Below, piece by piece: positions 17,281 to 59,288 of a stretch of 64,000 nucleotides of DNA. Position 1 is the stretch's first letter; each line of letters opens with the position of its first letter. Source of the DNA: Amphiscolops sp. MND2022. Taxonomy: Eukaryota. The stretch spans positions 70,556,001-70,620,000 of the forward strand of contig OZ076412.1 of the NCBI GenBank assembly GCA_964187785.1, given 5' to 3'. The notes below the pieces were generated by a model that saw only the letters and a list, made by a program, of their open reading frames with translations, searched no databases and was not told the DNA's origin. A program made the translations under genes and the position numbers.

Positions 17281-18584
17281 TTCAAGCCTTCTGAATAGCT
17301 GCGCTTTGGATAACTGGTTGTTTGGTTTTGGAATTTTTTGTTATTTTCCGACCCCGCATTTTATAAATGGGGGAGGAAAATCATGATCTGTGACGCGTTT
17401 TGTTTCCAAATTTTGCCAAATCTCCACAATCTCCACTTTTTGATAACTTGACTATTTTATATAGCTACTAGTAACGAAAATATTCAAGTAACTAAAATAG
17501 GATACAGCGGGAATAATATCTAAAATCAAAAAAGGGAAAAAGATCTAAAGGGATTAAGATCTAAAATTTCAGTGCGGGAAAAAGATCTAAAAGGAATAAG
17601 ATCTAAAATCACTAAATTTTAGATCTTATTCTTTAGATCCTATTCCCCCCTCCTAAAATAGCTATGGCTCAGTTGGTGAAGGCGAACAGGGCGGAAAATA
17701 TCCCGGTGATTAGCGGAAACATTCAAAATCAAATCGGTACAAAGCGGTGCAATTGAATGGTCAAAAAATGGACTATCAGTTCCATTTTCTGCCCTAAGAA
17801 GTCTAGACAAGGCGCCTGCTGAGCGCGGAGATAAATTCAGCTAGTGTAGCCAATAAATTTACGCCAAAACGTTGGTAACATTAAATTTTGTACCAAAAAC
17901 AAAATTGTTGAAGAGATAATTTTGCCGTTGAATCTGGTGGTTATCCACATTAATGAGAACGTTCAGATATTCTACAAAACTACATCAAAGGATCAAAATT
18001 TCACAAATTGAAGGATTTCCGGCCTATTTGGAGCAATTTGGTACTCACTTTGGAAGAAAATTGTTTCAGATTGATTGTATGCAGGGAAAACTTTGACCAG
18101 TAACGAGTTTAGTTGGGTCTGGGTACCAATGCAATTTAGTGAGCGTAATAATCAGCCAACAAGATTTTTCTGTTTTCTCTAATTCCACACAAAGATTCTT
18201 AGTGAATGTGGGTATTATAAATGGTTGATTTTTATATATGAATATAAATAAATTGCACGGGGTGCGTATTGAATAGGGTATATAAAGGAACCCAGTCAAC
18301 GAAAATCAATTAGACAAGTCCTCGGGTGTTCGAAAAGTGCATCGAAAATTTCGCGGTAGAAAATTAATAAGGTTTTCATCTTCAATTGCCTAGGAAAAGC
18401 TGTAGCGGAATGACCTCCCCATTTCGTCTGTCTGGGAATTGGGTGTGGTTCATTTCACTGTGACCACAGTTTCCTGATACCTCTGGGCGATTGTACTGGG
18501 GAGTAACTACTTTATCGTGCAGAACTTGTTGCCAACCGGCATAATCGAACTAGCACTGAACCTCAATCATGTTGTGTAACACGC

Positions 18585-19532
18585 TTGGGAGAATTGCAAA
18601 CTGCTACATTACGTCAATTGTCTACAGAGGACTTACTGATTCGTCTCAATCTCCGAACGGATCTAGATGCTGCCGCCAAAGCCAAGGCTGAGAGACAGTT
18701 GGGCGAGCAGAAGACTACTGAGGCAGCTAAGACTGAACTTGCAGCTACTTTCAAAGAAGAGTTTGCTCGTCGAGCACGGGGTTACCTTGTGTCCTTACTT
18801 GAGGAGTTCTTAAACCATATCAGTCTCAATGCCGATATTGTCAAGGGAATGGCCACGTTCGATCCTCATATATTCTTGGGCAGTTCCATGGAGCAGGCTA
18901 CTTTCTGTTTCGCCCCCTTGTTTCGCAGTTTCAGTTTGCGTGGCTGGTTGGAAGGTTTCCCTGAGGCCGACTGTAGAGATGAGTACATGGAATTTTTCGA
19001 TCATTTCCGACACACTTACTCTGCTCTGAAGGGCTCTGAGCGGATCACGGACATGGTGGATTTGTTTATCTCGATGCCCGAACGTCAAAACCGGCCCCAT
19101 TTATGTCGCTTGTTCCGACTGAGCTGCTTGTGTTTAGGCGAAGATACAGCCTTGTTACCGCCTATCAAGTTCCAAGATGTTGTCGCCCAAAGTTCACGTT
19201 GTCGACTTAGTGATGTTTTGTTGCCATCACAGTCTTATTTGACAGTGGTCCCTAATGGTATTGCCAAATGCACGAGTGAGGCTTCACTGGCTAAATACAA
19301 AGAACTTGAGCGACAATTCAACTCTGGAAATGTACCTAGCGACCCTTGGTCGCACGTAGATTCTTTTGAGCGTGAAAAATTCCAGAAAGTGTTAACTTCC
19401 GTTTACAAAGCTTCATACCGAGGGCCCAAGCCTACTGCTTCTAGTCGTTCCGCCTCTGAGTCAGAGTCGACTTCCTCTACACATTCTCCTAGCAAGGCTG
19501 AGGCTGGTCGGAAGGTCGTTTTTGGAGATTAG
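18585..19532 (+). CDS. Terminal exon of element D antisense hAT-like gene (open 315 codons)
   Basis: ARGYLVSLL...IVKGMATFDP and LFRLSCLCL match ORF 37880-39073 (ARSYVIFL...IVKGLGSFDL, IFRLSCLCL). Confidence 0.8.
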   Translation: MGELQTATLRQLSTEDLLIRLNLRTDLDAAAKAKAERQLGEQKTTEAAKTELAATFKEEFARRARGYLVSLLEEFLNHISLNADIVKGMATFDPHIFLGSSMEQATFCFAPLFRSFSLRGWLEGFPEADCRDEYMEFFDHFRHTYSALKGSERITDMVDLFISMPERQNRPHLCRLFRLSCLCLGEDTALLPPIKFQDVVAQSSRCRLSDVLLPSQSYLTVVPNGIAKCTSEASLAKYKELERQFNSGNVPSDPWSHVDSFEREKFQKVLTSVYKASYRGPKPTASSRSASESESTSSTHSPSKAEAGRKVVFGD

Positions 19533-31404: not shown

Positions 31405-33035
31405 TGTCGTGATTTTGTTCACTATTCGCAGAGTCTACTGAACTCTGTCGTGATGTTAGTCTTTTGTTTTCCTGCATAAAACACTTTCTAGGGCAATTTT
31501 CCCACGATTTCTGAGCGTTTTCAACTTCGGAGTTCCATTGTAGCCCACTGGACCTTCGGTCTCCTGTGGTGAAATTAGCTGATTTTGAACTATCATGTAG
31601 CCCAATGGACCCTTTACCACCACGGTGTGATTTACTCTGTCCTGCGATTCCAACGTATTTTGGAAGGAAGGAAGTATTTTCTCAGTGATTGCGCTACTAA
31701 TAGCGTCTTGTATTTGAATGTTCAAGCTATTTTTGATTTTATTTAGTTTCCTTGACATTTGATTAGAAATCTCTTCATTAATCATTCTAGTGGTCTCAAT
31801 AGTAATTTCATTATTCTCCTTGCTATTTGTATTGAGTAAAGATCTAAAATCCTCCCCAATTACGTTCGAACTTTGCTGTGGCCTATTGGACCCTGAGTCC
31901 AAATTTACTCCGTTTTTACTAATATCATTTTCCTCATCATCCCTGCAGTAGCTTCCGAGCATTATATCAACATTTTCCACGTTGGACATCATGTCCAATG
32001 GTCTAGAGCGTCGCTCTTTAGCCTTTTGCTTCCTGGTTGAAGGCATCGAAGAATCAATTTAATCAATAATGAATAGATCAAAAGAAGTTATCGAAACAGA
32101 TTTCAACAAGTGAAAAGACAAATCAATTTATGTAGGATTTGTGAACGTAGTGTTAGGTATCGCAATTACTGTAAGAATCATCCTCGGGACCTGGCGTCCC
32201 TGCTATTTATATTTTCCACTGCATGACAAGCACAATTTATCAGGTCATTGTTTTAAATTTAGCCCCTAAGTAGGCTAAAAATAGCCTTGAGGGAGATGAC
32301 ATCATTATTACCTCACTTTCAAGTAACTATAAATAGCAACAGGTTATATTAAAGCAAAAGGTGTGGGGGTTTCAAAGTTATACCAGAGGGCCTTTTAGCA
32401 TCAAATAATATCTACATGTGCGTCATAATATCATCATGATTGCATAACGGATATAGTAAGCAACTAAACGCGTTAATAATACCAAAGCGGACCTAAAGTC
32501 CGCATAGCAACAACACAGTGACGTCATAGTCATAGTATATGAATAACACCATGGCGGACTCAAGGTCCGTTTGACCACCATAAATAAAAGACTGCCTTCT
32601 GATTGGCTATGAGTGTTATAGACAGCGCGTACAATTTCGCAAAGGAAACAAGCATTTGAACTCGTTTCCTTTGCTACGTACAATTGCTAATTACCAATTT
32701 CACAGCGTTGAATTTATTCAATTTGCCATTGCTATTACATCAATTAACTAACAGTTCTAGGTAACACAAACACTAAATAGATAAAAATAATACTCCAAAA
32801 TATGGTTAATATCCGTATAAGAGTGAGTTTAAGTTTGAAACATTTTTTGTAGGCAAATCGACCGACGGTCTACTATGGTGTAATTTGCATTCCTCTTGTC
32901 GTATGCCATGATGGTGCTTCTTAAGTCGCTGAGACTTTCTTAATTAGATCGGTAGAACTCCTGGGGGTGGATTGGGCACACTATTTCCCGCTGGGAATTG
33001 ATATAGAATCCCGTCACAGGCGGCAGCCTGCGACA
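31405..33035 (-). repeat. 3' LTR of element E (1631 bp)
   Basis: Aligns with 44644-46263 and carries the MPSTRKQKAK ORF from 32046. Confidence 0.95.
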
Positions 33036-33913
33036 CCCCCTGGGACTAAAATCACACTCCCAGCTCGCATACCTGCTAAGATAGCATTTCGTCGTCGGAT
33101 ACGTTGTGCGTAATTTTCTTCTGGGATGTGGGTTTGTTCCAAGTATCCAAGAGTGATCTCCTCTTGTATAGTTGCGAATGATTTGCCACACTTTGTACAA
33201 TGGCCCTGTTGGATGTACTTTGGTTCCCCACAGGACCCACCTGTGCTGATTGCCAGTCCAGTGATATGTTGATTGGTGATCCACGAATCAACTTGTTCTG
33301 GCCCTTCCGACCACTGGTTATTTCCAATATTTTGCGATGTCCCTTGGTCAATCAACGGGGGCGACATCGGTGAATATGGTATTGGCTCCAATTGGCTACA
33401 ATGGGCCATACGGTGGTTCGGGTCATCTGCGGTGTGAGAATTGGTGGGGGGACTCCCAACTAGCCAGTCGACCAAGCTGTCAGACGGGTCGAATGTTGGG
33501 TCGAACGATCCCGACGGGCCACAAAAGTATTGTATCTCATCATCAGTGTATGCGTCATGATCGAAAGCCATTGCTCTCCCTCCGGCTAATTGGGGCAGAT
33601 ACACAGGAGTCTCCCTATAACAGGCGATTACTTCTATATCGCTGTCCGCGTCCTGATCTTGTTCTATAGCCGTCACGGAAGCCGAGTCAAGTTCCATATC
33701 CCTTTCCGAGGATTCGTAGAGTGCACTGATCAAGGGTCTGATAAATTCTTCAACGTCAAATTGTAAGGACATTTCGCTATGAAATCGTGAAAGAAGATTT
33801 TCTTCGCAATGATTGCAATGTCGACTTGATTGTAGCTTTAAAAATGGGTAGAATGGCTTGCTCTGGCCGAGTAGACCTTGAGTCTTTCTTGGTTTTGCGG
33901 GAAGCCGTTTCAC
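33014..33913 (-). CDS. Sense accessory ORF-S of element E (299 codons open), stop inside the 3' LTR
   Basis: Open frame with DADSDIEVIAC and GHCTKCGKS...AILAGMRAGS. Homologous to 8943-9977 and, at the C-terminus, to 59289-60233. Confidence 0.8.
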   Translation of the reverse strand: MKRLPAKPRKTQGLLGQSKPFYPFLKLQSSRHCNHCEENLLSRFHSEMSLQFDVEEFIRPLISALYESSERDMELDSASVTAIEQDQDADSDIEVIACYRETPVYLPQLAGGRAMAFDHDAYTDDEIQYFCGPSGSFDPTFDPSDSLVDWLVGSPPTNSHTADDPNHRMAHCSQLEPIPYSPMSPPLIDQGTSQNIGNNQWSEGPEQVDSWITNQHITGLAISTGGSCGEPKYIQQGHCTKCGKSFATIQEEITLGYLEQTHIPEENYAQRIRRRNAILAGMRAGSVILVPGGVAGCRL

Positions 33914-34931
33914 CGGAAGCCGTTTCGCGGGAAATCATAGTAGATAGTTTCCCCCGAATTTTCCTAACTCTCCTTTTAAGTAAATATATGATATTAGGTA
34001 AACTTTTATGAATAGGTTGTCACACCTCTTAATAGGCCCTTGATGGTCACTCAGTTTATTTGTTCAGTGGCTACCGAGTAGATGATCATCAATGAAAGTG
34101 TTGACTAGCTATAATTGCTGGTAAATAATAACACCATCAAAGACCACCCGTCCGTGTGACTACACTCAATATTCTGACCAATGAGACAACAGCGATAAGT
34201 AAATGAATAAAGCCTCCAAGAAAATAAGTAATGGTGGCGGAATTAAATGATTGATGCCCTAATAGGTGAAATGAAGGGTTTAGATTGCGAAATGAACGCT
34301 AAGTTCACGCGTCACTGGCAGGTAACTAACATGAAATATTAGAATCAGATAATGTTAGGAGTGATTAATATTAGGTGTTTTCAGCATGAGCCACGACCTC
34401 CAGGCTAAATAATCTTCCTCAATCATGTATTCATTTTAAGTTAGTTTATAGTGAAGTCTCAAAGTCTGGAGTAAATCAGATAAATGACGGCTAAATAATT
34501 TTATACCAGTGTTTGTAGTACTGTTCGGTCCCTTCTTCTATTACATCAGTCACAATTTCACTCTGCCTAATCACGTTTCATTAAATAACCATCTTGTACT
34601 AATTAATTGGTCCTGCTCTTGCAACCATCTCTATTGGAGTATCCACGATCGCCCTCTGGTCCAAACGGCCACAGTCTGAGGTAACCTCAATTGAAGTCCC
34701 AGCAGCCTATCTGTTGCAGAATTTAGCCGTAGATCCAGTTTTAACGACGTCATTACACGAATTCTGTTCCCCAAATGGAAATGACATCAGGTTGGTTCTT
34801 TTGATTGAAATCATCAGCATAAACTTGGTCAAGGTCTAGTTTTGATTTTTGACACTTCCTCCATTGTGAAATTATTTCATATTAAATCATTGATTCTATC
34901 TTACTTCCGGAAGGTTTTCAAACGCGGCAAA

Positions 34932-37900
34932 ATGGATTCTTATTCTGGAAGTGAACCGCGCAAATTCATATCTTTCTATTTAGGTAAAGAGAATATTGGC
35001 CAACCTCAACAAACGTCTTGTGAGCCTGAATCAATAACTAATCCCGAACAATTGGCTGGTAATGAAACCCCAGCAATCGAGTCAACCGGACTTAGCATCA
35101 GTCCAGCCACAGAAGTGGACCAGGAGGTCGCGCAGCCACAGCAATCACCAGGACCTTCCCTGGTCTCCCGATTCTTTGCCACCGACAGCAGTGGGTCAAA
35201 TGAGAGTTGCGAGACTTACATTATTTGCAAGCGTAACCAGTTGGCTCAGAAGGTTGCCTTGGGAACATCCGAAGTTACTGAGTTTAGTCAGAAAGAAAGC
35301 GTCAGTGAAGCCATAACACTCACTCCTAACGTCCAACATTACCAGTATTTTCAACTCGAAAGGAGCTCTTGCCCCCAAGTCATCTTCCTTGATTCTCCAA
35401 AAGAAGCTGGGACCAGCAGTTGCCCGGAACGAGAAGCGTTAGCAGCAAAGAAGCCGAGAATGACACCGCCCCAATGTAGTTCGTCTGGGACCGACGTACC
35501 AGCTGGCCCACCTACTGATGTCTCAGCTACCAAGAGGCAAACTGCCTCTGACAGTGAGGGCGAACAAGTTGAAATTGAGCCACCATTCGATAATTTTAGC
35601 AGTTCGGAAATTGGAAACCTTACTGACAATGAGTCGGACCGATATGTCGGGTCAACATTAGCGGAGGCGTTAAATCCGAATGCACAATATTCTTTGTTGG
35701 TTGCTAGCGATCAATTTAGTGACGTTGCTACAGTTAAAACTCCCGAAGAGCCTAAGGTCCGCCCCTTAGGTGGAAGTAGCAGAGCCTTGATTAAAGAATA
35801 TTTTGGCAATATTGAACCTGAAAGACTCCCACCAAGCCATTCCGTTATTGCTTCCACAGATGGACAATTGGGCAGTGTCCTTAGGGTCGTTGCCGATGAA
35901 ACTGCTCGGGCATCGTACGACATGCTCGAAAACTTGGTGTACAGGGCAAGCCCCCTTTCTTTGTTCACTAAGACAGGGGCTAACTCAGGCAAGAGTAGAA
36001 CTTCGTCTAGACAAGGATCTTCTGCCGACTCTTCACGTAGCCAACGGCCTAGTTCAACTACCGGCAAGGGCAGCGACACCAGTGGGGTGCTAAGGAGTGA
36101 TGACGACTTTAGTAGCATCGGCTATTCATTTGAACACTCCGAGCCCGAACACATAGCTGCTGCTCCTCGACCAACTCAGCCTTCTTCTAGCCGTAATGAC
36201 CCTGGGTCCCCTATGGTCACTTTCAGTGCTGATAGTCCAGGAATTCAAACTCTGGCTGAGTTGAAGAAAGAGGCGTTACACGACCGGCAGCAAAAGACCA
36301 GGAATGAAAAAGGACGCTACGTAGCCTCTTCGAAAGGTACTGCGAGAGCTAAGCGGGGTGTGACCAGATCCTGCAAGGTAATGAAGGAAGCCTATTTTAA
36401 AGGCATGGAATGGACACGAACTTTCGTCTCAGGACCAGTCGACCCCCAGTGGAACAAATACAAGTTTTATTGCCAGATTTGCAAGGCAAATATTTCCATC
36501 TACTCGAAAGGGGCCCGAGAGATTCTCAGACACCATTCGACAGAGAAACATCTCCGCAAGGATCAGCGTTGGAGATATGAATACCTTCATAAAGTTGATC
36601 CCGTAACCAAGGCGCGTTACCCTCAAGTACGCGGGAAAGATGGCAAACTGCTATCCCCTTACCAACTTGCTCTTGAGTTGCCCAAGTTTAAAGATGTCGA
36701 GCTGGTTGACCTAGGTGAGAAGTTGCCCTTTTATGACGAACTCATGTCAGGAGCAGACCACATGTCCTCCAGTTCAGAGAATCGGGCACGGATTCAAATA
36801 TCCGTGTTGGGACGGTTCCTTCCCCGGAATGGCGACATTGAGTTACTTCGTCACTTCTGGCGAGACATTGGAGTGATAGTAAATCACCAGTCCCTTTTCA
36901 CGGACTTCAACTGGAACAAAGAACGGCTGACAGTAAGTATGCACTTTGGCTACTCTAAGTGCCTTAACAACCAGTCACTTGATCTTGTTTCAATCCTGTT
37001 CACCTTCTGATATGCTCGAGTAGACTTAAGGTCCATCGGCTTACAACACGGTATTTCATTGGCTGTTTTGTTTTACAGGTCATATTCCACGTATATTCCC
37101 ATATGTTCCTCGAGCTCGTGAAAGACATCGGCCACCACGTGGTTTCAACAGGAGAGTATGGGCTCGAACTCGCGCATGATGGGGCTTTTCTTCTAGTGTT
37201 CATCCGTTTCTGGCATGAGGACCAGCTTTGCCGATTTATCCGAAGCGGACCGGAAGGACCCAAGGCCAGAGCCAATCTGAGCTCACTCTCGTGGCGCACG
37301 TGATGGGTGCTCTCTCCACTGAACTGCACATTATCAGTGTTACCGGGAGTACGGTCCAGACTCTACAACAACTCGATTATAGTCGCTACAGCAACTACGC
37401 AGTCCAGAGTTCTCCCTGTTTTGAAGAGCTTCAGCTGAGGGCATTAATGCACAAGAAGAGCGCTAATGTGTTTGGCAAAATCGACTTCTTCGGCGTTCTA
37501 CATTACTTGGTGGTTTCCCTAGTGCCAAGCCTCGAACTAGACTGGGTACTGCTCTCAACCGAATTGACTAAGGTAAGCAACGTTTTCCTTGTCCCGCGAT
37601 TTTTGGTGACAAGAAGCAATATATATCATTTTCTAGGCAATTCGGACGTGTCAGCTTGGGATGACTGGATTATCCTTGTGGTGCCAAGAGTTACTCAAGC
37701 AATGGCCAAAGGTGACAGCCTACCTCAGCGAACACACTGCTTCCCAACAAATGCAGGGAGTGAGAAACCAGGTAATTTCTTTTACTTTGTTTTTGGTTAT
37801 AAGTTGCTTTGAGAATTTCCCAATTCTCTGGTCCAATGGACGTTCGGTCTCGTATGGCTTCTGATCTTGTAAACGTTGATTGCATCAAGTTGGCCACCAC

Positions 37901-39073
37901 AAGTTCTTAATCATGATGATTTTCCCTTGTTTCATGACAATTTTGTGTTTTACCCTAAATTTAAAACAAAGGCGAGACAGAGGCTTCCAAGTGTTCCGGG
38001 AACTCGTCCAGTTCCTTTTCAAATTGGGCCGACGCTGTATCCGACCAGCTAATTTACCCATTGAGAGTGACATGCTGAACATTTTGTGTCTGCCGATACC
38101 AGACGTCAAGGCCTTGAGCATCAGCGATTTCCTCTCAAGGTCAAAAGTAGAGACGAGACTCGAAACGACTTGTAAAGCCCAAGCAGAGGCTGAAAAAGGA
38201 GAGCGTAAAAATGAAGGATTGAAGCTGGAAGAGATCGCCTCGAAAATTAAAGAAGAGTTCGGACGGAGTGCCCGTTCCTACGTTATCTTTCTGTTTAAAG
38301 GGGCACAGGGGCTCACCCGATTCACCTCTGGTATAGTCAAAGGTCTAGGGTCTTTTGACCTCGAGATAATGCTGGTCGAGCCATTGGAGAATGCGGCGTA
38401 TTGCTTCAAGCAGCTCTTCACAAGTTTTCGACTCCGGGGATTATTGCAGCCAGAGGAGGAAACAGTTTATACTGAAGAGTATATGTCTTTCCGTGACATA
38501 CTTCGTCAATCTCACCCGGGTGTGCAACAGCCAAAGCTTTTGATTGCAGACACCATCGAATTCGTTTGTGGGCAAGAGTCCTTCAAGTCCAGAGTGTACC
38601 TGCGTCACATATTCCGGCTAAGTTGTTTGTGTCTGGATGAACATCGCCTGTCATTCCCGCTGGTCAAATTTGGTTCTCGTCGCACTGACGACCCTCTAAG
38701 TCCTATGTTCGATGTTATTGCGCCCATACAATCGTATCTTGACAATGTGCCCCGAGGTCTAGATGTCCTCACTAGCGATTCCTCCATCACGCGGTTCGTA
38801 GCATTAGAGCAAATTTTTGGTAATGGCGGGCTTAGTGATGTGTACAGCCTCTGGGATTCGATCGACCATTTTGGCAGGGTCCAAATTAGGGGAGCTCTAG
38901 GTACCGTCGGTACCGGGCAGTCGACGACTTCCAGCGTTGATGGAGCTGCTGAGAGCACTGGTTTGAAGCCTTTCGCTGTCCCAAAGCCTTACAAGCGCCG
39001 TAGTCATCTACTGTCTGGGAAGGAACTGGCGGATTCTGCTTCACGTCTTGCCGCTAGTTGCAGTAAAGATTAA
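34932..39073 (+). CDS. Antisense multi-exon gene of element E: zinc finger plus catalytically degenerate hAT-like domain
   Basis: Exon 1 34932-36932, exon 2 37079-37572 (1-nt frameshift near 37232), exon 3 37637-37771, and a terminal exon within 37880-39073. GT-AG introns in phase 0. Exon 4 unresolved. Confidence 0.85.
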
Positions 39074-39237
39074 TTGTACCATATGTACAAATGTATGTTA
39101 GACTTTGCCTCTCATGTATAAACTTTATCTTGTTTTGATTGTTTTATTGTTATTTTAGTCCAGTTTGTTGGTAATTTCCTAGTCAGTTTTAGTCTTTCAG
39201 TTGAGATTGTTGAAAGAGACAGAATATTACTATTTGT

Positions 39238-42200
39238 TTAGTATCTGTATTCATCAGTGAAGTTGAAGGTGGGGTTAGGACGAAGGTTATATTTCCTTCC
39301 TCTAGAGCTTTCATTTTCCACAATCATATCGTTTCCATCATCTAATACTTCAGGCACGATAGTATCGCTCCCGCCTGATGATTGTTGTTCATCAAGCCAG
39401 TCATTTGTCCCTTCTAAGGGTGTTTTTTCAAGCGATACGGGATTGTCACTTTGGTGTGGCCCGGTGGACCGAAGGTCCACGTCGGTGAAAATTTCGCCTG
39501 GTGGGCTGGTATTGTCCACAAAGCTACCTGGAGTGTCTGCGGTATCAAGACGCGTAGGATTTGCGGTTTCTGCAGTTGGATCGGGGAATTCTCCAAAATT
39601 AGTTTCCCACGTGATGACATATAGGTCATCTTGCGGAATAACAATTTCATCGTCCGGTTGCAAATTGCCTTCCGGTCGGTTGTCCTGTAGGGCAGTGTTC
39701 AATTAGTATTTGCGCAGTCTAATGCGGTGTAGGATTTGCGTTTTGTTGGAATTTAGTTTTCTAACTATGTAGTTTTCATTCGGTAAGACCTTTTCTACAA
39801 TGTAGGGTCCTGTCCATCGGTATTCGCGGATTGGAGTTTTCGATCCTTGGTGGTCAGCAATGGGTTGTAATATGAAACAATTTGTCTCAAAGGAGCCGTT
39901 TTGGCTTATCGGTCGTTTTGTCTCAAAGGAGCCGCTTTGGCTTATCGGTCAAATTATTCCTTGTATTTCAAATAGGATTGCATTATGTTTTTCTTTGTGG
40001 AATCTAGTAATATTTGGGTCCGTCTTTGAAATTCATCTGCGAAGTCTGTAGTCGGAAGGACCTTTGGGTTTGGGTTAAGGCCTAATTTGTGATCCAATAT
40101 AATATATGGGATTCTTCCGTGGAACATTCTGGATAGTTCACATCCCAGGGTGGCGTGATAAAATGTATTGTAATTCAATACGGCGGCAAGTTTTTGTGCC
40201 ACCGTCGCCTATAGTCCCCTGAGGCCATCTTGAGATTCGTTTTGAGACTAGCGTGAGTACGCTCTAGTTTACCGATTGTTTGCGGATGTTTTGTAGTTGC
40301 GCATTTTATTTGGATTCCTAGGATTTGAGCTACTTCAGCGATTAATTTGGACGTGAAGGCCGTCCCTTTGTCCGTGATCAAAGTAGTAGGCAAATAAGTA
40401 TGTTTGGTCATTATGTCTATAATAACCTTAGCCGTGTTTGTGGCCGAAGCATCGGTGACTGGATGTGCAAAAAGATATCGTGAAAACACGTCCAATGCGG
40501 TTATGATATTTTCGTACCCTCCACTGGGGGGCAGGTTTGGTAACAAATCAATTTGCCTTGCATCTTCTGGGCCTAAGTCGCATTCGGGCAAATTCAATAA
40601 TTCTGGTGTGATGGATGAGTTTGGAATTCTTTTGTCTTTGATACAGATTTCACATCCCTGAACTTATTGTCCGTCAGTATAATCACCGGTTTTGGGGTTC
40701 CCCGAAAGATATGTCCAAATTCCTTGAAAGCAAAGAAAATTGTTAAGAATTCTTTTGCATAGATGGACATTTTCTATTGGGTAGGACTAAAGGTCTTGGA
40801 TCCATAGGCTACTGGTGCGAAAGCCTTCCTCGTGGAAGTGTACTTTTCGAAAGGATCATCCTCAATGAGAACTGCGTACCCCGCGGCCGAAAAGTTGGCA
40901 TCTGTCATAGGAGCTATTTGCTTGTTCGGTAAGGGCTGTTTGAGTGCCAGTTCACAACATCGATCAAGAGCCTTGTTGATCTCGGTGAATTTTTCCAAGA
41001 GGTCCGGTGTTACCAGGACTTTTTCATCTTTAGTAAGTAGTCTGAAAAACGGTGTTAGTTTTTCTGATAATCTTGGGATGTAATTTCGGTAATAGTTTAG
41101 AAATCCCAAGTAACGCTGTAGTGCTTTCTTGGACTTCGGAAATTTTGCATTTTCCAGGAAGTTTTGGACCCGAGGTCTCTGCGGCTTCACTCCAGAAGGA
41201 GTGATGGTACGACCTAGGAAATCGATTTCCATTGCTCCGAAGTGACATTTGTGCATGGTAAGTTTCGGACCAGCTCTTTGAATGCATTGGAAAGTGGCCC
41301 TCAGGTTGTTGACGAGTTGTTCGGCATCATTAGCAGCGATGCCAATGTCATCAACGTATTGGGCACATTGGTCTGCTTTGATAACTTTATCCAAATATTC
41401 ACGCATAAAGCTGGAAAAGGCCGATAGGGCTCTACTAAGTCCTTGTGCCAGTCTTTTATATGCGAAGGTTCTGCTTGCGAAATTGAAGGTAAACAATTCG
41501 ATGGACCGCCGGTCAGCCATCTGTAGACAATGATATGCTTGCGAGCAGTCCAATTTGCAAAATAGCTTTTTCCCGGCCATGTGTTGGCCTGCGTCTGTGA
41601 GCGTACTCACCGTGTGATTGTTGTCTATGTAATCATTTGAAATGAGGTTGTTGAGTTTCCGTAAATCGACTAAAAGACGTAGTTTTCCATTGGTTTCTTT
41701 TGGGCAAAAATTGGGCTTGCATATTTGGAGAACGGGAGGGTTGTAATGATCCCATAACGGTGTAGTAGTGCTAGCTCCACAAGGATATCCTCCTTGAGAT
41801 TGATTAGGGTTGGTAAACTCTGACTATAGGCTGGGAAATCATCTTTCGGCGTCAATTTGACCTTGAAGTCCTCGTTCATGCCTATGTCAAATCGATGTCT
41901 TGCGAATATGTCGTGAAATTCGACAAGTAAGTCTTTTATGCGAGCTATTTCAGCTGGTTGTAGCATAGAGTCTGTCCAATCAAAATTGGACAAGAATTGT
42001 CGTCTGGACTCAGTGTCATCCTGAGGGTTAAATTTCTCTAGTTCCTGAAGGTTGATTAGGTCTGACAGAATCCTTTTCTGGATGGGTGTGTGATGCTGAG
42101 GGTCCCCAGGGTCTTCTGGTGTTGGGAACCAGTAATTCTCCCTGAAGTCCTCAGGTTTGGTAGATTTGATCAAGCTGCTTGCATAATGAGCAGCATTTAG

Positions 42201-43529
42201 TAGGTGCCATGTGGTCACCAGGTCTATAGATTCAACATATTTCATCCGTTCTTGTGTCAGAACAGTGAAAGTGGCTACTTGCGTGTCCTTTTTAAGAGTG
42301 TAGGGACTGTCAGTAAATTTCTTCAGGTGGACTGATACTTGACCATTGGTCAAGGTGACTAGAGCAGCACAAAAGGCTATATCGCCATCATCAGTGATGT
42401 TGTTGCTCGGTTGAAGGATCCCAGTAACTGTAGTGACCTCGTACAGTTGTGAAGCCATTAGGACCGAGTGTCGGCCATTAGGTGGGATGGTTACATCTTC
42501 CCTAATGCAAATGGGTTCCATGACATTAGTGTATTTGTGATCCGCGGTCTTTGATTGCATGGAAAAGAAAGGAAAATTTAGGACTCCTTGTCTCATGTCC
42601 AGGATAGTGTTGTTCCGTTGAAGGAACGAAAGGCCAATCAAAGGACTAGTGAGTTTTTCCATGACCATAAATATTTCGTGAAATTCTATGACGCCAACTT
42701 CAAATTTAGGTTCGACAGTGCTCTTTGGTGTTTCCAGCTGCTCATTTGCAACCATGATTTGGAAGTTGGGTGCCGGGCCCTCGTTGACAATAGACTGAGG
42801 GGCTAGTAATCCGATTTTACGTAGATCAGCTTTTGGGATTGCGCTAGATAGAGCTCCCGTGTCTAGAAGGCCATCTAGAGTTAGTTCGCCAAAATCCATT
42901 GGAAAATAGAGCATTCGTCGTTTGTGTTTGAGAACAAGATTGGTTGTTAGCGGTACATAGTCTGGTTCACCTGTTCTGGTGACTAGGGTGTTCACAAAGC
43001 GTGCTGTAACGGCTGTAGCCAGGGAGACTTGTGGTCCCACATGGTGGAATTCGTCGTCAACAGCAGCGTGATTCGTTTGATGAGTGAAGAAAGTGCCACG
43101 TTGCCATGGGTCGACTCGGGCCTTTACTAGGACCGCATTGAGTGCTTGATCAATTTCAGTGGAGTCTGACTCTATGTTCTGGTGTGGCTTGTTAAAATTA
43201 TGGTAGAAGTATAGATGATGTTTATTGTAGGAATTAGAGTCCCAATAGGGGTCAAAACCATAGTCAGGGTCAGGGTAGTGCGGGTTATAGTCATCAATAA
43301 GTGGTATCATTCGTATAGTGGAAGTATCGTTTTGTAGTCTGTTGGACATAGGGTCCAACGTGGTGGAAGAGATAGGTGGATTCTTCATCTGCTGCTGCCA
43401 GTCAGCCGATGGTGTTTCTTTAAGAGCTGTATAATATTCTGTATAATATTTGTTTGGAGGGTCAGATAATACGTATTGTCGAATTTCGAGTTTTGTGTTT
43501 ATTTGGAGTCGTGGCGAAGCTAGTTTTTT
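39238..43529 (-). pseudogene. pol: Element E pol; deletion near 40662 removes the RNase H end and integrase N-terminus
   Basis: LLDTGA protease, CAQYVDDIG RT, ALDVFSRYLF and ITDKGTAF integrase. ILTDNK is fused directly to GCEICIKDK. Confidence 0.93.
43523..43529 (-). promoter_or_regulatory. -1 ribosomal frameshift heptamer A AAA AAC (element E)
   Basis: Immediately precedes the gag TAG. The -1 frame is open into pol (LASPRLQ...). Confidence 0.75.
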
Positions 43530-44632
43530 GGATTTTTTAAGATTGAAGTTGTTTGCTTATTTTTTGTGTCTTCTTGGCTGGTGGACGTATCGGTAACTGT
43601 GGTGTCGTCCATTTTAAGGTTTCTGGGCTTGAGATGGGCTCCAGCGCCTTTCCAACATCGTTCCGCCGGGTGATTCGTTTTGTCGCAAGTTGGTCATTTT
43701 GGATATTCTTTCTTGGTATCCTGTCCGTCATTCCGGCGTTGTTCCTCCTTTCTTTTAGGTTTTCGACAATCATCCTTGACATGTCCGGGTTTTTTGCAAT
43801 AGTTGCAAGTAACGTTGGGATCAATGCCAGAAGAAAGAAGGCCAGTTCCCGGTCGTTTTGCTGTAGGGGCAGTGGACATTGTTGGTACGGGAATGTCGTC
43901 CCATTCCTCAAGTCCGTTGAGCTCTAGCTCACGTTCTAAATGGGTGACAATTTCTTCCTAGGTTGCGTTTTCAAGTCTAGCCATGTTGACTGAACGTTTT
44001 AATTTCGGCGGCAATTTGGCATATAGTAGGCTGTCGATCATTGCCTGGGCATTTTCGCCAAACGCTTTTTCTGCTCCTTGGTTGAGTTCTTCAAGGAAGT
44101 CTGGCAATTTCATGGTGTTTGGGTCAAACACCAATCTGTGCCATTTGTGTTTGGCGGTCGCCTGGGACTCTGGTTCGATGTATTTCCGACAAAATACTGC
44201 CAGGATGTCCTCCAAGGTTTGCCTGTTTGCCTTATTTATGTTACGGAAAGTTTGTAGAGCGTTCTTTCGTAACAATGAATGAACATGATTTATTTTCATT
44301 GTTTCAGTCATATCCGGCTGCATTTTAATCATTGTGTGAAAGAAATCTTCGAAAAGTTCAACTTTCTCTGATTTTCCGTCAAACGTCAGTGTAGTCGTAC
44401 TGACTGGGCGTACCATCAATGTTTGTTGGGATGGACGGTTATTCATACCGACTAGTACTTCTGAAACACGGTTGATAGGGTCAGAAGGAGTTGTAGGTGC
44501 TGTAGTCTCAGGGACTTGAGGGATTGTTTCCTGAGGCTCGTGATCGGTCGAATTGTGGCGTTGCAGGGGTTCACGGGATTGCATGGGACGTCCAGTGAGA
44601 AACTCAGGAACCAAATGTAGGGTAGGGCTGGC

Positions 44633-44643
44633 TCCTGTCACCA
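44633..44643 (-). promoter_or_regulatory. Primer-binding site TGGTGACAGGA (element E)
   Basis: Follows the 5' LTR end and is absent after the 3' LTR end. Confidence 0.85.
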
Positions 44644-46263
44644 TGTCGTGGTTTTGTTCACTATTCACAGAGTCTACTGAACTCTGTCGTGATCTTAGTC
44701 TATTGTTTTCCTGCATAAAACACTTTCTAGGGCAATTTTCCCACAATTTCTGCGCGTCTTCAACTTCGGAGTTCCAATGTAGCCCCACTGGACCTTCGGT
44801 CTCCCGTGGTGAAATTAGCTGATTTTGAACTATCATGTAGCCCAATGGACTCTCGGTCCACCACGGTGTGATTTACTCTGTCCTGCATTTCCAACGTATT
44901 TTGGAAGGAAGGAAGTATTTTCTCAGTGATTGCGCTACTAATAGCGTCTTGTATTTGAATGTTCAAGCTATTTTTGATTTTATTTAGTTTCCTTGACATT
45001 TGATTAGAAATCTCTTCATTAATCATTCTAGTGGTCTCAATAGTAATTTCATTATTCTCCTTGCTATTTGTATTGAGTAAAGATCTAAAATCCTCCCCAA
45101 TTACGTTCGAACTTTGCTGTGGCCTATTGGACCCTGAGTCCAAATTTACTCCGTTTTTACTAATATCATTTTCCTCATCATCCCTGGAGTAGCTTCCGAG
45201 CATTATATCAACATTTTCCACGTTGGACATCATGTCCAATTGTCTAGATCGTCGCTCTTTAGCTTTTTGTTTCCTGGTTGAAGGCATCGAAGAATCAATT
45301 TAATCAATAATGAATTGATCAAAAGAAGTTATCGAAACAGATTTCAACAAGTGAAAAGACAAATCAATTTATGTAGGATTTGTGAACGTAGTGTTAGGTA
45401 TCGCAATTACTGTAAGAATCATCCTCGGGACCTGGCGTCCCTGCTATTTATATTTTCCACTGCATTAACAGGTCATTGTTTTAAATTTAGCCCCAAAAAA
45501 GGCTAAAAACAGCCTTGAGGGAGATGACATCATTATTACCTCACTTTCAAGTAACTATAAATAGCAACAGGTTATATTAAAGCAAAAGGTGTGGGGGTTT
45601 CAAAGTTATACCAGAGGGCCTTTTAGCATCAAATAAAATCTACATGTGCGTCATAATATCATCATGATTGCATAACGGATATAGTAAGCAAATAAACGCG
45701 TTAATAATACCAAAGCGGGCCTAAAGTCCGAATAGCTACAGCACAGTGACGTCATAGTCATAGTATATGAATAACACCATGGCGAACTCAAGGTCCGTTT
45801 GACTACAGTAAATATAATACTGCCTTCTGATTGGCTATGAGTGTTATAGACAGCGCGTACAATTTGGCAAAGGAAACAAGCATTTGAACTCGTTTCCTTT
45901 GCTACGTACAATTGCTAATTACCAATTTCACAGCGTTGAATTTATTCAATTTGCCATTGCTATTACATCAATTAACTAACAGTTCTAGGTAACACAAACA
46001 CTAAATAGATAAAAATAATACTCCAAAATATGGTTAATATCCGTATAAGAGTGAGTTTAAGTTTGAAACATTTATTGTAGGCAAATCGACCGACGGTCTA
46101 CTATGGTGTAATTTGCATTCCTCTTGTCGTATGCCATGATGGTGCTTCTTAAGTCGCTGAGTTTTTCTTAATTAGATCGGTAGAACTTCTGGGGGTGGAT
46201 TGGGCACACTAATTCCCGCTGGAATTTGATATAGAATCCCGTCACAGGCGGCAGCCTGCGACA
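44644..46263 (-). repeat. 5' LTR of element E (1620 bp)
   Basis: Aligns with 31405-33035. Confidence 0.95.
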
Positions 46264-46268
46264 GCTAT

Positions 46269-47155: not shown

Positions 47156-47166
47156 TGGTGACAGGA
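47156..47166 (+). promoter_or_regulatory. Primer-binding site TGGTGACAGGA (element F)
   Basis: Follows the LTR-terminal CA. Confidence 0.85.
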
Positions 47167-53384: not shown

Positions 53385-56300
53385 TCACTTATCTTCAACA
53401 TTCTTCTTTCGGGCGACAAGTTTTTTAGAAGATCCTTGCTTCACCTCAGGCAGGAAAGGTATGTCGGTCACACGCCGAGTTACGGAAACAACAAGAGTAC
53501 CAAGAACAGGAGACTTTCGGGTGTTTTTAGCAGAATTGCCAGTAGCGCTGGGCCCAACTTGAATAGAAGTAGGTACAGCAAATTTAGGAGGAGACCGGAC
53601 GGATGTAGAGTCAGGTTTCTTGGGACTACTTTGAAGCGAAACCCAAAGCTTTTCTTCATCGGAAACAGTACATGTTTATCGTGAGTCCAGTTGGTTAGAC
53701 AGTCGTCGGCGCCGAGAAGAACATGAGAAAGTTATGTCCCAAACTCTGAAATTTTCATCCTCTAACAGACTCTGACCTCGTCCAAGTAAAGAGAAGACCG
53801 AGGACACAGTTCGTGGATTCGAATATAACTCAGACACACTAGGAACTCCAAATAAAGAGGACTGTACACTCCTTACACATGACTGGAACTCATTAATATC
53901 GGATTTCAAGTCCTCTAGAGCAAAAGTAAAGATGTGTGGAATGATAGGAGCAGCGGGGAGACACAGATTGAAAATGGAGAACAAATTTTCCCGGCAATGT
54001 AGTTCATAATAATTTGTTAAAAAGGTAATCCATTCGCCTTTGTAAGAAACATCATGCGATCTGAACTTCTCCACAAACGACCAGTATTCAGTCAGGATCA
54101 GCGGTTTAGCGGCATGGGATACCCATTTTTGCTGAACAAAGAAGTCACAAAGCATTTCGGATTCGTGAGTGTAATCCACCTCTTCCCAAAATCGAATAAG
54201 GGCTTCGTCGAAGATTGAAAAACCGCGAACAAGCTTTGACTTACAAAGTTTATGCTTCAAGAGAAGAATGCATACGTTCTTACAGAAACTTAGGGCTTGC
54301 TCCACAAAATGCGAGGGCGTCGGCAGATCACTTTCAGCAACCAGGTCGGCGAAGTCTTTGTTGCGTAAGAAGTCGGCTACAGTTTTGTAAGGCAAATTAG
54401 GGGACGAGAGATCAATAGTCAAGAAATGGTCCCAATTAGAAATGTCGCCCAAGAAGGAAACGGGGAGTATGGTCTGTAATTGACTGTAAACAAAGGTAGC
54501 AAAAGCACTGAAGACGCGGAAACCATCTGGGGGGTGATGGCCCGATCACTCCTTTGAAAGCTGAAGTATCTAAACAAGCAGAATATTGAGCACACTTAGA
54601 GTGATACGAATTATGAATGAAGAATAACAACTAACAGTGCAAGAGGACATTTCGGATCAAAAACAACTTGACCGCATACGTTTTGTCCTTGACGAATGTT
54701 TCATCTAGACTCTTTGGCTGAAGAAAACACATACTAAAAAATCGAACAACACGCGAGACGCAAAAATAATAATAAAAACAATAAATACCTCTTTCATGTG
54801 ATATTTGAATGCCTTCATTCGATCAGCAAGTCGAAGATGTGAGACAACATGGCTCCAATTACGATACAATTGCTCAAGGATTATGACTGATTCCTCATGA
54901 CTGTACTTGAGACTAGAAATTGCCTGAAACAACAAACAAAATCGGAAATTATGATGCATTATGCTGAATTCTGAATACAGTATAGGATGTCACACAGCAT
55001 ACATCAGTAATTATGCGGATTATGCGGTTTTCAGAAGGAAACAGCATAGAAGAACGAATTATGCGGTTTTCAGAAGAAAACAGCATAGAAGAATGATATA
55101 TGCGGTCTTCAGAAGAAAGCAGTATAGACGAATGAATAATGCGGTTTTCAGAAGAAAACAGCATAGAAGAATGAATTATGCGGTTTTCAGAAGAAAACAG
55201 CATAGAAGAATGAATTATGCGGTTTTCAGAAGAAAACAGCATAGAAGAATGAATTATGCGGTTTTCAGAAGAAAACGGCATAGAAGAATGAATTGTGCGG
55301 TTTTCAGAAGAAAACAGCATGGAAGAATGAATTATGCGGTTTCCACGAGGAAACAGCGCAAAAGAACGAATTATGCGGCTCCCAGGGAAGGACAGTACGA
55401 AGGAAAGAATTATGCAGTTTTCAGGAGAAAACAGCATAAAAGAACAAACCGTATCATCTATACCGTTTTCTGGAGAAAACGGCATAGGAGGATGTATCAC
55501 GAGACTTAGAAGAAAACAGCCTATATGATATAGTACCCGAAAGAAAACAGTAAAAAACACAAGGAATACGAAACCGAACTAAATAAAAATCAATGGTAGA
55601 ATTAGCTAGTGATTCGACTAATATTATGCAACATTATGCGGTTTTCGGAACACAGAATAGGAAGACTATGACTCAACGTAGACTACAACACAAAGCGCAA
55701 ACGTGGAAATTAGTACACCTAGAAAGAATAAAATTACGTTGGAATGAGGGACATCAAAACATTCCAAAAATTAAATGAAATTACCTTGCGGAGTTCAGGG
55801 AGATCGCTGAGCCACACAGAGCCAGTGGCTGATCGTAATTTCATCAAGAGGAATTGCAGCACGCTGTGATGGTCATAACGGTCAAGAATTTTGATAGCAG
55901 GACCAGCTAAGACTTTGCCCAAATCTTCGAAAGAAAACGTGGGTATTACACATACGTTTGGTGCCTGGACTAATTCTGCTGAAATGGTTTTCGTAGTGCG
56001 CCCGTCAAAACCCATGACTGAGTAAAGTGGGGGAACGGTCGGAAAGATGGCTAAGAAAGAACTGATCGTTTGAAGGATCTCTTTGGGCGAATTGAGGCTG
56101 TTTGTAAATTCAGCCAACAGAAACCGATTGAAGTCATTTCCGGACCAGAAGACCAGGATGAGCTGAGAATCGTATTGTTCCGTTCGAAGTTGTAGCGAAA
56201 ATTGTCCTGATTGGCCAATGGAAGTCGAAGAGTAAGAGAGCAGTGTGCGGAACATATGGACCAGAATACCCTGTAAATGTTAGAAGACAAACAGTTAAAA

Positions 56301-57720
56301 TGTAGACAGGAATATGTCAGAAGTTGTTTAGAATGACAGGAAAAGGAAATACTTACGAAAATGCGTGCAACACTCCAATCGTATTGGGGAACTTTGACAG
56401 GCCCGCGGACCTCGAGACTGAGATTGGACCAAAGTGAGGATAAGATGGTTGAGTCACCCCCTTGTTGTAGACCGGTTAACAAATCCGTATTTGAGAACAA
56501 ACTACAGACGATGGATCGAGTTCGTCAATTGCTACAGGAAACTTTCGTTGTCCTGGTAACAAGTAGCATTCTCCCAGTATTGGAATGATGGGGTACGCAA
56601 GCTCAGCTTTCTCTCGAGCCTCGACAAGGGCCGGACCTGTTAGCTCTTGCTCATCTTTCCCGAAAAGCGGCAACCCCGGAGTTTCCATCCTAATTCGTCG
56701 CTCGCGAACCAGGTGGGAGTCTATTCTGTAATGGGAAAGAATTTGCAAAGATCCTTTCGTTTTGAGGGATAACTCAATGTGGGCAGACTCTACAACGCCA
56801 CTTATGGGGATGATTCTCGGAAACAGCAGGCGCGGTCACAAAAAACTTAAAAACCGGATGCTTTTTGTACATGCTTCCAGTTAACTGAAGCCTTGGCCTG
56901 GGTCTATTTGATGCAGAAGCTTGGTCTCCCTGAGGATCATGAGGAGGTACTCGATCTCTCGCCCGTAATTGGCTCCTTTCTCGTCGCGATCTTCCCGGAG
57001 GAGGTGTAGGTTGATCTTCACTTACACTTGTTGGGGAAAACACAAGCGAAGAATCAAGATTTATCCCACTCGTTTCTGCCAAGGTGGTTGCCCCAGTGGT
57101 AACAGTGGGAGTCATCGAGAACTGTTCAAACAACCTTGAGCTAACTGCAGTCGTTACCTCAGAAACCAAAACTTGCATTCGTCGCTCAAGGGCGGCTAGA
57201 TCTGAACTGGTGACAAATTCATTTCCTGAGAACTGGGGAGGTATGGCTGATGTACTTGCGACTAAAGCGCTGAATGCAGCTACGTCGGGGTTGTTGTCCT
57301 GCGGTGGTTGGTAGATGAAATTTGAGAAGGATGAGAACGGAGTCCGCTCCGATGGAGTGTCAATGGCAGTAACGTCGACGTTTTGGGTCACATTAGGATC
57401 AGCTAGTTCATCCATTGGAGTTATGCTAGCTCTTGAGTCTGGCCTTGGATTCACATCAGGTAAATCAGCGACAGTGCCAGGATCACCGAGAAAACAAATT
57501 GCAGTTTCTGTGGGGACCGCACTAGTGTTGAGGCTCTTGTCAAAAGAATGTTTTATCCCATCAGCGTCGACGGAAGTTCCAGAACTCTCTTCGAAGGCGT
57601 AATTATGATCAGGAGTAGAATGATGCGGAGGAAGACCAAAAGGGAGCAACAAAGCCAAATCACCGGTAGCTGAAGTCGATTGAACTGGCAGATTAGATGC
57701 CGCGGTGTCTGAAACACAAC
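53385..57720 (-). pseudogene. Antisense multi-exon gene of element F: zinc finger plus degenerate hAT-like domain
   Basis: KWRCRVC...KTKG...ILSHY...H finger near 56700-56790. Introns 56356-56271, 55784-54924, 54788-54718 and a donor at 54635. The last exon includes ORF 53676-54452. The 5' end is uncertain. Confidence 0.82.
55018..55495. repeat. Minisatellite, 39-bp unit AATTATGCGGTTTTCAGAAGAAAACAGCATAGAAGAATG, about 11-12 copies
   Basis: Direct reading of the sequence. It lies inside predicted intron 2 of the F antisense gene. Confidence 0.95.
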
Positions 57721-59288
57721 CAAATCAAGAAATCAAGAATAGAGGACAGTTAGGAACGAAAACCAACTGTTAATACAATGAAAACCTGATCAACTTTCAC
57801 TTTAAAAAAACAGAACTAGTTCGACAAAATTGTTCATCAACTTGGACAAGAAATCCGGAAATAATTTTGTGAAAGTTGACGAGAATTGGAAATCTGTTCA
57901 ACATTTAAAACGGGATGTTAGAAAATGTCCGGTGATGACTGATTGAAATCTAATACTCAGATGCCTTCCCCTATTTCAATGAATCTGGAAGAATGTGATC
58001 TAGAAATACAAACCTTGTGTGGAGGGCTCGTCTCCTTTCTGTTCAGACATCCCGTTTCACTACTGGCGAAAGAAGAGTAGAAGCTCGGAAAAGGATGAAA
58101 TCGTACTGGAATAATAATTGAGGAAAGGAGCAAGACAAAATGCGAGCAGGCTGTGTAAACCAAGACGAAGAAGCGAATAATGATTTGCTGGTAGAAACAA
58201 TGAAGAAGGCTCAAAATCCTGAGGAAGAGAAGAAAAGACAATGTCTAAATCTGAAAACTATAATGTAGAGAGGTAAACTCGAATTAAAGAAGATCTGAAA
58301 ACTGATAAAAGAAGTGTGGAAGTGAAGCTGTAGGACTATCTCGACTACAAGATTAGGACGATTAAAAGACTGTGAAAACAAAAGGAATTGAAAGATTTTC
58401 AATGCAAAGATTGAAGGCAGAAGGCGTGACTATTAGCGTGAAAGGCAAGAAAGCAAATGGACGACGTCAGTATTGTCGTTTTCAGCGTATCTCAAACTTG
58501 ATTGGCTAAGAAGGATGTACGTAGTTTGGACAGCTCTGCCAGCGTACACCAATCGTTCAGCGCAACTAAGAACGCCAATGCATAATCACACGACGTTGGG
58601 AGCGCTTCGGAGCAGCATAACTATGCAAAATCTTATGCTGAAAACTTACTAGAGCAGTATGACGCGATTATGCGGAATTGAGTGAAAAACAGCATAATGA
58701 ATTTATGGTGATAGCAAAGAACTATGATGCATTATGATGTTTTCAGTGAGAAGTATATGATGTAAATTACTACTAATACTGCCTCTTCATATGTTATGAG
58801 GTGTTAAATGAATGAATGAAAATTTACACTTCGAAAGGAGTGATTCATGCAACGAAGCGTGAAAACTTTCACTTTGATAAACCTGAATGAACCTATGATA
58901 TATTTAATTATGAGCAATTAAAATTATTCAGACAGAATAAGAAGACGACAATTGAAACATAAAAGAAAATGAAAAGAAAATTTCAGGATCTGATGATTGT
59001 TTATATGACAATAACAATTTTACCGGTGCTATTCCCCCGATATCTCATGATAAATTACCTGAAAACCCGGGAAATGGGTAATTCGAGATATGTTTTGATG
59101 CTATTTGTAAGAAAACCTCTGTAACCCAATAAAAACTATAAGATCTTATCATTCTGATCATAAATCTTCAAAAACTAGCCGCTTATTTTTCCTCCCTCTC
59201 TTTGACAAATTCCTTGAGAAATTTATAATCATATTGTGTTAAATCTTCTTGAAACTTGACTGGAATTAAATAAACTCATAGTCTGACA

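Follow-up and report, generated by a model that had tools for sequence, protein, structure and literature searches.

A 64,000-nucleotide stretch of the genome of Amphiscolops sp. MND2022 (contig OZ076412.1, positions 70,556,001 to 70,620,000; hereafter the window) contains four related elements, A, C, E, and F, of a Ty3/Gypsy long terminal repeat (LTR) retrotransposon lineage, each with a gene or its remnant on the strand opposite to pol. Comparison with further copies in the genome indicates that this is very probably a real spliced gene, judging by its junction sequences, from which single introns appear to have been lost exactly, at least four times, loss being the simpler reading. For its product, the prediction is a hAT transposase no longer capable of catalysis. 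The full proposal, in which a conserved antisense gene of five exons would encode a non-catalytic hAT transposase that binds short motifs of its own element, activating the element or shielding it from silencing, has in our view an even chance of being right. The intron losses, the likely hAT origin, and the motif arrays are additions to the original prediction, a first reading of the window that had described the introns of this gene.

Splice structure of the antisense gene and selection on its exons

Spliced alignment gave an architecture of five exons and four introns in phases 0, 0, 0, and 1, with internal exons of 486, 135, and 82 nt. The sample comprised 60 fetched loci, taken from the best matches of four queries, and later 20 loci of a fifth clade, G. 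Exactly these internal exon lengths were found in 33 of the 60 fetched loci, and in 27 every exon was open, the encoded proteins having 1005-1365 aa. Since spliced alignment requires GT-AG, the junction test was repeated with ungapped protein profiles from which close relatives were left out and which are blind to GT and AG, using 63 copies (the 60 fetched and three of the window) with 252 junction positions. The exon ends placed by the profiles left an intron-sized gap at 235 positions and no gap at 12, and five positions were unplaceable. GT was present at 219 of the 235 donors and AG at 222 of the acceptors, far above the backgrounds of 6.1% and 6.3%, which argues that the splice sites are not due to chance. 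A GTRAG- or GTAA-type context surrounded 82% of the GT sites compared with 9% of background GTs, and 98% of the acceptor AGs were YAG compared with 42% of the background; many of the misses fall in frameshifted copies. For the 20 loci of clade G, profile placement recovered GT-AG at introns 2-4 in 54 of 60 cases. Intron 1 of this clade was GT-AG in 11 loci and unplaceable in nine of the 20, the exon 1 profile having misplaced donor 1 in several of them, and spliced alignment recovered a phase-0 intron at the same codon in 20/20. The splice-site consensus is preserved between clades that are about 20% identical in protein, and GT-AG ends, donor consensus, pyrimidine-rich acceptors, and homologous coding positions, as in U2-type spliceosomal introns, were all found. 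If left unspliced, 123 of 132 introns would disrupt the reading frame.

The original prediction had placed intron 1 in phase 0 at one shared site of E, A, and F, and the junctions are indeed located there, reading ACA/gtaagt...ttacag/GTC (E, 36933 to 37078), TCA/gtaagt...ttacag/GTG (A, 6017 to 5845), and TTC/gtaagt...ttacag/GGT (F, 56356 to 56271). The donors of intron 2 after ELTK (E 37573) and ELRK (F 55784), the 135-nt exon 3 of both copies, and the range of intron lengths in the window copies (64-861 nt) were likewise borne out. Two statements needed correction. Exon 3 of A had been described as having the same 45 codons, which holds for its length, but identity reaches only 17/45 between E and A and 6/45 between E and F or A and F. 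The 82-nt exon with a phase-1 donor had been assigned to both A and F, and both donors are present (A 5074, F 54635); in A, however, the 82 nt do not form a separate exon, as they are fused with exon 3 (217 nt).

Ratios of nonsynonymous to synonymous substitutions (dN/dS) were calculated for the 33 loci of canonical structure, among which 11 within-group pairs were unsaturated. The ratio was 0.06-0.17 in nine of these pairs and 0.41 and 2.83 in the other two, both with dS <0.02. In exon 2 of the four most diverged pairs, third codon positions differ by 24% compared with 2.8 and 2.5% at the other positions, and reading the reverse strand of the same pairs gave ratios of 2.0-2.8. The exons are thus under purifying selection (overall dN/dS about 0.07), acting on the protein. 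Together with the splice-site consensus retained across distant clades, these ratios agree with the earlier expectation that the gene is under selection. That the introns were kept because they lie antisense to the genomic RNA, also proposed at first reading, fits the layout and would follow from how reverse transcription works.

Carrier elements and exact losses of single introns

The Ty3/Gypsy elements carry the gene in antisense orientation, after pol and before the 3' LTR, with the integrase downstream on the opposite strand in 60/60 fetched loci and 19/20 loci of clade G (79/80, a count that says nothing on elements lacking the gene, as the loci were sampled via the antisense gene itself). 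An antisense gene in the interval from pol to the 3' LTR, found across the sampled copies, has the position of the aORF-3R type. Eight loci were extended to 30 kb and contained elements of about 15.6-16.5 kb whose LTR matches are 99.5-100% identical, with clean 5-bp duplications in three of them (L053, L037, and L069). These three and element E have LTRs of the form TG..CA, a target duplication, a primer-binding site, and a polypurine tract. The carrier encodes gag, protease, reverse transcriptase, and integrase in Ty3/Gypsy order, the best relatives of its reverse transcriptase in the PDB being those of foamy viruses and Ty3 and other reverse transcriptases. The order along the element is LTR, gag, pol, antisense gene, an extra sense open reading frame (ORF) of about 300-350 codons, and LTR, and there is no overlap of the coding parts, since the antisense stop is located past that of pol. 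The zinc-finger part of the gene gave 8021 first-look candidates in the 1.07-Gb genome, which is not a copy number; the carrier lineage is very abundant and young.

Trees of the antisense gene and of the integrase were built with FastTree, with no true root (L083 and window copy C were left out of both, and L090 also out of the integrase tree). The distances in the two correlate (Mantel rho 0.87, 61 rows, 0/999 permutations as high), the deep clades agree, and the two trees have only 14/58 splits in common. Within clades the integrase hardly varies, the antisense gene being about six times more divergent. Loci L069 and L087 have identical integrase rows, distant antisense proteins, and different intron sets, likely as a result of an exchange of the 3' module between elements.

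Individual introns are exactly missing from some copies. One clade of 10 rows lacks intron 4 (1 change on the tree), window copy E being counted with its clade because its own junction is deleted. Intron 2 is absent in L037 (1 change on the FastTree tree), and intron 3 in window copy A and in L087 and L088 (2 changes on that tree). All are codon-exact in comparison with intron-bearing sisters. The form lacking intron 2 was found in five copies, whose nearest relatives have an intron of 69 nt at this codon boundary, and the A form lacking intron 3 in three; such multi-copy forms are not assembly errors. Loss is favoured over gain because every group without a given intron branches from within groups that have it. 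Intron 1 showed no such absence in the sampled copies. One candidate for its loss, the unnamed database protein P0369, instead reads through a stop-free intron 1 of 69 nt; intron 1 is also 69 nt and in frame in L075 and L076, and P0369 and a second unnamed database protein, P0381, read through such an intron. Locus L091 (G000:C2:94731001-94741000) was likewise rejected as an intron-less copy, as its 818-aa frame looks like an internal deletion joining the N-terminal part of exon 1 to the last exon.

The losses of introns 2 and 3 show AG microhomology and could alternatively have arisen by DNA deletion. No microhomology occurs at intron 4 (ATT/gt..ag/A), which favours copying from spliced RNA for this loss. 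Template switching onto mRNAs is documented for LTR elements (PMC5131818). The four exact losses are, as patterns in the DNA, indirect signs that spliced RNA may exist.

Predicted origin of the protein and its possible role

Exon 1 ends with a CxxC..H..H zinc finger, in which the CxxC and the first H are invariant and the second H is near-invariant; in Pfam it had sub-threshold C2H2 matches only, and no zf-BED match. Basic clusters are also present, and the region before the finger consists of 42-47% S/P/E/T/D, forming a low-complexity N-terminal part of 170-500 aa. Structure prediction used natural single-exon frames only, namely a fused exon 2-3 and a fused exon 4-5. The exon 2-3 model (predicted local distance difference test, pLDDT, 71.7) has the succession helix, three strands, helix, strand. 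With Foldseek, Hermes transposase occupied ranks 1-11 (best E 1.6e-4), and in a wide search residues 1-110 matched Hermes 153-264 at rank 26 (Z 5.7, root-mean-square deviation 3.0). Residues 1-264 of the exon 4-5 model (pLDDT 70.5) matched Hermes 333-569, tied first in the wide search (Z 6.5, root-mean-square deviation 5.5), and their alignment of 170 residues was the longest among the 50 matches listed. The domain order of hAT transposases, with an RNase H-like core and a helical insertion, is therefore found in the predicted models, at modest scores. The ten best named matches in the Atlas all have a family or clan in common, and the ones listed derive from hAT (clusters DUF4371, FAM200-ZBED5, GTF2IRD2-like, and DUF659, with scores of 0.81-0.86). 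An Atlas search with the last exon was set aside, having returned unrelated ATPase clusters with scores under 0.82. All homologues obtained by searching were unnamed proteins from ENA or Logan.

The catalytic residues of Hermes, D180, D248, and E572, have no conserved equivalents. Exon 2 has no invariant acidic column, one Glu of strand 1 being present in 22/33 rows only, and the conserved catalytic D, D, and E and the CxxH, TRW, and SxERxFS words are absent from the alignments and column counts. In addition, the dimerization domain Dimer_Tnp_hAT (PF05699) was matched by 0/36 last-exon peptides at E<=1. Loss of catalysis is predicted because the Hermes-like modelled fold lacks these conserved residues and words. 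On the strength of the models, descent from a hAT transposase is probable. A donor hAT was not found in the genome when profiles A1-A3 were compared with 2413 ORFs of 44 hAT loci, which gave nothing convincing; the best A1 rows fell in a repeat, antisense to another ORF. PF14291 gave no match, but its control matched nowhere either, and in the window the gene is not bordered by inverted repeats of >=60 nt, shorter repeats not having been searched for.

Short motifs recur in the non-coding parts of two clades. In clade F, the CCGCATA and CAGCATA words of the 39-40-bp array in intron 2 recur in 26- and 50-bp repeats of the LTR and also upstream of the gene. In the 12 F loci the motif density per kb was 27.2 in intron 2, 3.6 upstream, and 0.3-0.7 in coding sequence, compared with 0.57 in non-F loci. 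In clade G, for which the motif pattern was slightly widened, intron 2 is short and intron 4 long, and intron 4 contains 3-9 motif words in 20/20 loci, with none in introns 1-3. The G arrays have units of 32-33 and 64-65 bp, which recur upstream of the gene. Amplification of the same word in different introns, with different unit lengths, suggests selection for these words as candidate binding sites.

These observations could be joined as follows. A hAT transposon with introns would have landed backwards in the 3' internal region and then lost its ends, and its introns would persist since the copied genomic RNA carries them on the wrong strand. Transcription would start from the spacer between the gene and the extra sense ORF, which are arranged head to head, and the transcript would be spliced; occasionally, the reverse transcriptase would copy part of a spliced RNA, removing one intron exactly. 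The zinc finger and the hAT body would bind the CCGCATA/CAGCATA arrays in the LTR, the upstream region of the gene, and one intron, and the long acidic, Ser/Pro-rich N-terminus would recruit host factors. By analogy with known systems, whether the protein is such a DNA-binding self-regulator appears evenly balanced. Taken jointly, it is a tentative proposal, somewhat less well placed, that a Gypsy lineage domesticated a whole transposase gene with its introns as a sequence-specific activator or anti-silencing factor, that the antisense introns became protected space for binding-site arrays, independently in intron 2 and intron 4, and that reverse transcriptase occasionally erases single introns.

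Several points weigh against this proposal. No comparable arrays occur in the E, A, and C clades, so that the motif step rests on two clades, and the motif counts are inflated by tandem arrays. The dN/dS result rests on 11 unsaturated pairs only, and picking loci by best match favours intact copies. For the exon 2-3 model, Argonautes and actin-like ATPases rank above Hermes in the wide search, and the exon 4-5 model had no Foldseek match at E<=0.001. The VIA Z-scores of both models are within the range that common folds attain, and the Atlas scores (0.81-0.88) are leads only. No Pfam hAT match was obtained in single-exon scans, PDB sequence searches with profiles A1 and A2 gave 0 matches, and HHalign to 11 hAT rows of the same genome gave a probability <=1%.

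Other roles and origins were considered. The foremost of these, though rather unlikely, is that the dead hAT protein acts in integration or nuclear entry, binding cDNA ends or host chromatin and tethering the integration complex, without transcription control. Its basic clusters and zinc finger would suit this role, as would the lack of motif arrays in E, A, and C and a rate of evolution about six times that of the integrase core, and a nuclear-import role has been proposed for plant antisense ORFs (PMC7264820). However, F and G carry the motif in an intron, in the LTR interior rather than at the termini, and upstream of the gene, and a long, acidic N-terminus rich in Ser and Pro is in keeping with an activator. 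A repressor or copy-number brake comes slightly behind in plausibility; here the protein would dampen the LTR via the same motifs, or the antisense RNA itself would regulate. Dead transposases can repress. The layout is convergent with pol, and RNA-level roles have been discussed (PMC7264820); against this, it is the protein that is under selection, the lineage is young and very abundant, and the coding parts of pol and the antisense gene do not overlap, the antisense stop lying past that of pol. It is improbable that the gene is a captured host gene or encodes an RNase H-fold protein unrelated to hAT, with Hermes matched through a common fold. The higher rank of Argonautes and actin-like ATPases than of Hermes (rank 26) and the absence of a sequence-level hAT match point that way, but two separately folded parts match successive parts of Hermes, with a zinc finger before them, and the neighbours found in the Atlas belong to families derived from hAT. 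An independent, still active DNA transposon repeatedly inserting into Gypsy elements, to which the hAT-like fold and the departure of the integrase tree from the gene tree within clades might point, is very improbable in view of the same place and orientation in all but one of the sampled loci, the agreement of deep clades with its Mantel correlation, and the absence of catalytic words.

Related systems and the copies in the window

Antisense accessory genes are already known in LTR retrotransposons. According to PMC7264820 and PMC11963269, those of the plant Ty3/Gypsy elements Retand, Grande (gene23), and RIRE2 are alike in position, orientation, and presence in most copies, and the product of Grande gene23 is nuclear and expressed from its own promoter. 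The present gene differs from the plant antisense ORFs in its five exons, its length of 1005-1365 aa, and its traceable likely origin from a DNA transposon; a 2020 review describes the plant-type ORFs as having no similarity to other transposons, calls for a search for spliced antisense transcripts, and treats as open the question of where the antisense genes of LTR retrotransposons come from and what they do (PMC7264820). The word "intron" does not occur in the Retand paper. The brtn gene of Boty-like Gypsy elements of Botrytis and Sclerotinia is an antisense accessory gene in the same place (PMC8365987 and PMC7264820); compared by description, as far as the available text goes, it encodes small six-cysteine proteins that are not hAT-like. 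Neither the TRP28 domain of the Retand type nor the six-cysteine cluster of the brtn type was found in Pfam scans and alignments of the present protein.

Hermes and derivatives of hAT transposases, such as ZBED, FAM200, GTF2IRD2, and ZMYM1-like proteins, have the same order of zinc finger, RNase H-like core, helical insertion, and C-terminal helices that is predicted here. In contrast to hAT, the present protein lacks the conserved DDE, TRW, and SxERxFS and has a low-complexity N-terminus of 170-500 aa, and its gene is borne by a retrotransposon, not located in terminal inverted repeats or at a host locus. The nearest functional parallels are VANC of VANDAL and TnpA of Spm, which are non-catalytic proteins encoded by the element, with short motifs amplified in its non-coding parts as in the F and G clades. 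Tandem motifs in the non-coding sequence of VANDAL21, introns included, are bound by VANC21 (PMC5735166); TnpA derives from a transposase, and transposases are treated as sequence-specific activators in preprint 10.64898/2026.08.24.746577, where "retrotransposon" and "Gypsy" have 0 whole-word occurrences. These systems are plant DNA transposons and were shown by experiment, whereas the present carrier is an LTR retrotransposon, for which motif binding is a proposal from sequence.

A published report of a Gypsy-borne, spliced, hAT-derived antisense gene was not found, subscription papers, supplements, and Repbase/Dfam being outside the scope of the search, and the accessible parts of PMC12477816 and PMC13317346 hold nothing on a Gypsy-borne hAT-derived antisense gene. 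Antisense accessory genes are thus known, and it is the hAT origin and the intron history that were not found in print. The family offers a traceable likely origin, a hAT transposase, and a candidate target motif in two clades, and its many near-identical young copies make the function directly testable. If the proposal is true, transposase-derived self-regulators would extend from plant DNA transposons to retroelements. The exact intron losses are replicated inside an element that makes reverse transcriptase and, if true, would be a many-copy natural record of loss mediated by this enzyme. In practice, thousands of candidate copies are prone to mis-annotation as host genes or separate ORFs.

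All copies in the window are broken (Table 1). In E, exon 2 has 494 nt, and a deletion of about 99 bp near 37948, not found in close relatives, takes acceptor 3 and the portion of the last exon that corresponds to exon 4; its clade lacks intron 4. In A, exon 2 has 481 nt, and F has frameshifts in exons 1 and 5.

Table 1. Elements in the window and parts of their antisense genes
Feature	Position	Strand	Remarks
E, complete Ty3/Gypsy LTR retrotransposon	31405..46263	-	LTRs 31405-33035 and 44644-46263, 96.3% identical; target duplication GCTAT (5 bp)
E nested in 5' LTR of F	31405-46263 within 30592-47163
E exon 1, 667 codons from ATG	34932..36932	+	long N-terminal part rich in Ser, Pro, and acidic residues; basic cluster; CxxC..H..H zinc finger
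E intron 1, phase 0, 146 nt	36933..37078	+
E exon 2, 494 nt, out of frame	37079..37572	+	intact copies have 486 nt; RNase H-like core predicted
E intron 2, phase 0, 64 nt	37573..37636	+
E exon 3, 135 nt	37637..37771	+
E intron 3	37772..37948	+	donor kept; acceptor and exon-4 portion lost in ~99-bp deletion unique to E copy
E last exon, remainder	37949..39073	+	exons 4 and 5 fused in E clade; predicted helical insertion and C-terminal part, hAT-like fold
Doubled TGTAC word	39074..39096	+	right after E antisense stop; retained in E, A, C clades
E extra sense ORF, 306 codons	33014..33934	-	head to head with antisense gene; extends into 3' LTR
A intron 1, phase 0, 173 nt	5845..6017	-	exon 1 remains ~6018-7970
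A exon 2, 481 nt, out of frame	5364..5844	-
A intron 2, 72 nt	5292..5363	-
A exons 3 and 4, fused (135+82 nt)	5075..5291	-	intron 3 exactly missing, likewise in two sister copies
A intron 4, phase 1, 180 nt	4895..5074	-	followed by broken exon 5 to ~3750
F intron 1, phase 0, 86 nt	56271..56356	-	exon 1 remains ~56357-57724
F exon 2, 486 nt	55785..56270	-
F intron 2, 861 nt	54924..55784	-	39-bp tandem array (~54941-55486) of CCGCATA and CAGCATA words
F exon 3, 135 nt	54789..54923	-
F intron 3, phase 0, 71 nt	54718..54788	-
F exon 4, 82 nt	54636..54717	-
F intron 4, phase 1, 66 nt	54570..54635	-	followed by broken exon 5 to ~53400
CCGCATA/CAGCATA cluster	58613..58690		upstream of F antisense gene
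CCGCATA/CAGCATA cluster in F LTRs	60624..60995; 31068-31325		3' LTR; 5' LTR
C remnant	18558..19430	+	last exon of gene only

Several features of the carrier accompany the antisense gene. The extra sense ORF of 300-350 codons is conserved, with window copies at 33014-33934 (-), ~9170-9941 (+), and 59274-60233 (+), and overlaps the start of the 3' LTR; it has a CxxC near its end and no Pfam match at a useful level. Locus L043 and its neighbours have gag and pol in one frame of 2292 codons, in contrast to the two overlapping frames of other elements. On the strand of the genomic RNA, AATAAA is located between the pol stop and the antisense stop in 34/45 loci compared with 48% in shuffles, and might mark the end of a shorter gag-pol mRNA before the antisense gene. 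A canonical poly(A) signal for the antisense gene was not found, AATAAA being present in 7/45 loci. The doubled TGTAC word just after the antisense stop was detected in 26/32 loci of the E, A, and C clades and 0/13 F loci, with a shuffled rate of 0.1%. It could be a signal for 3'-end processing or a Pumilio-type RNA signal, or alternatively a palindromic DNA site. Upstream of the C remnant, the window contains a tandem duplication of 1.65 kb (94%; 12167-15596) and a unit of 2 kb whose ends are long inverted repeats (15637-17716).

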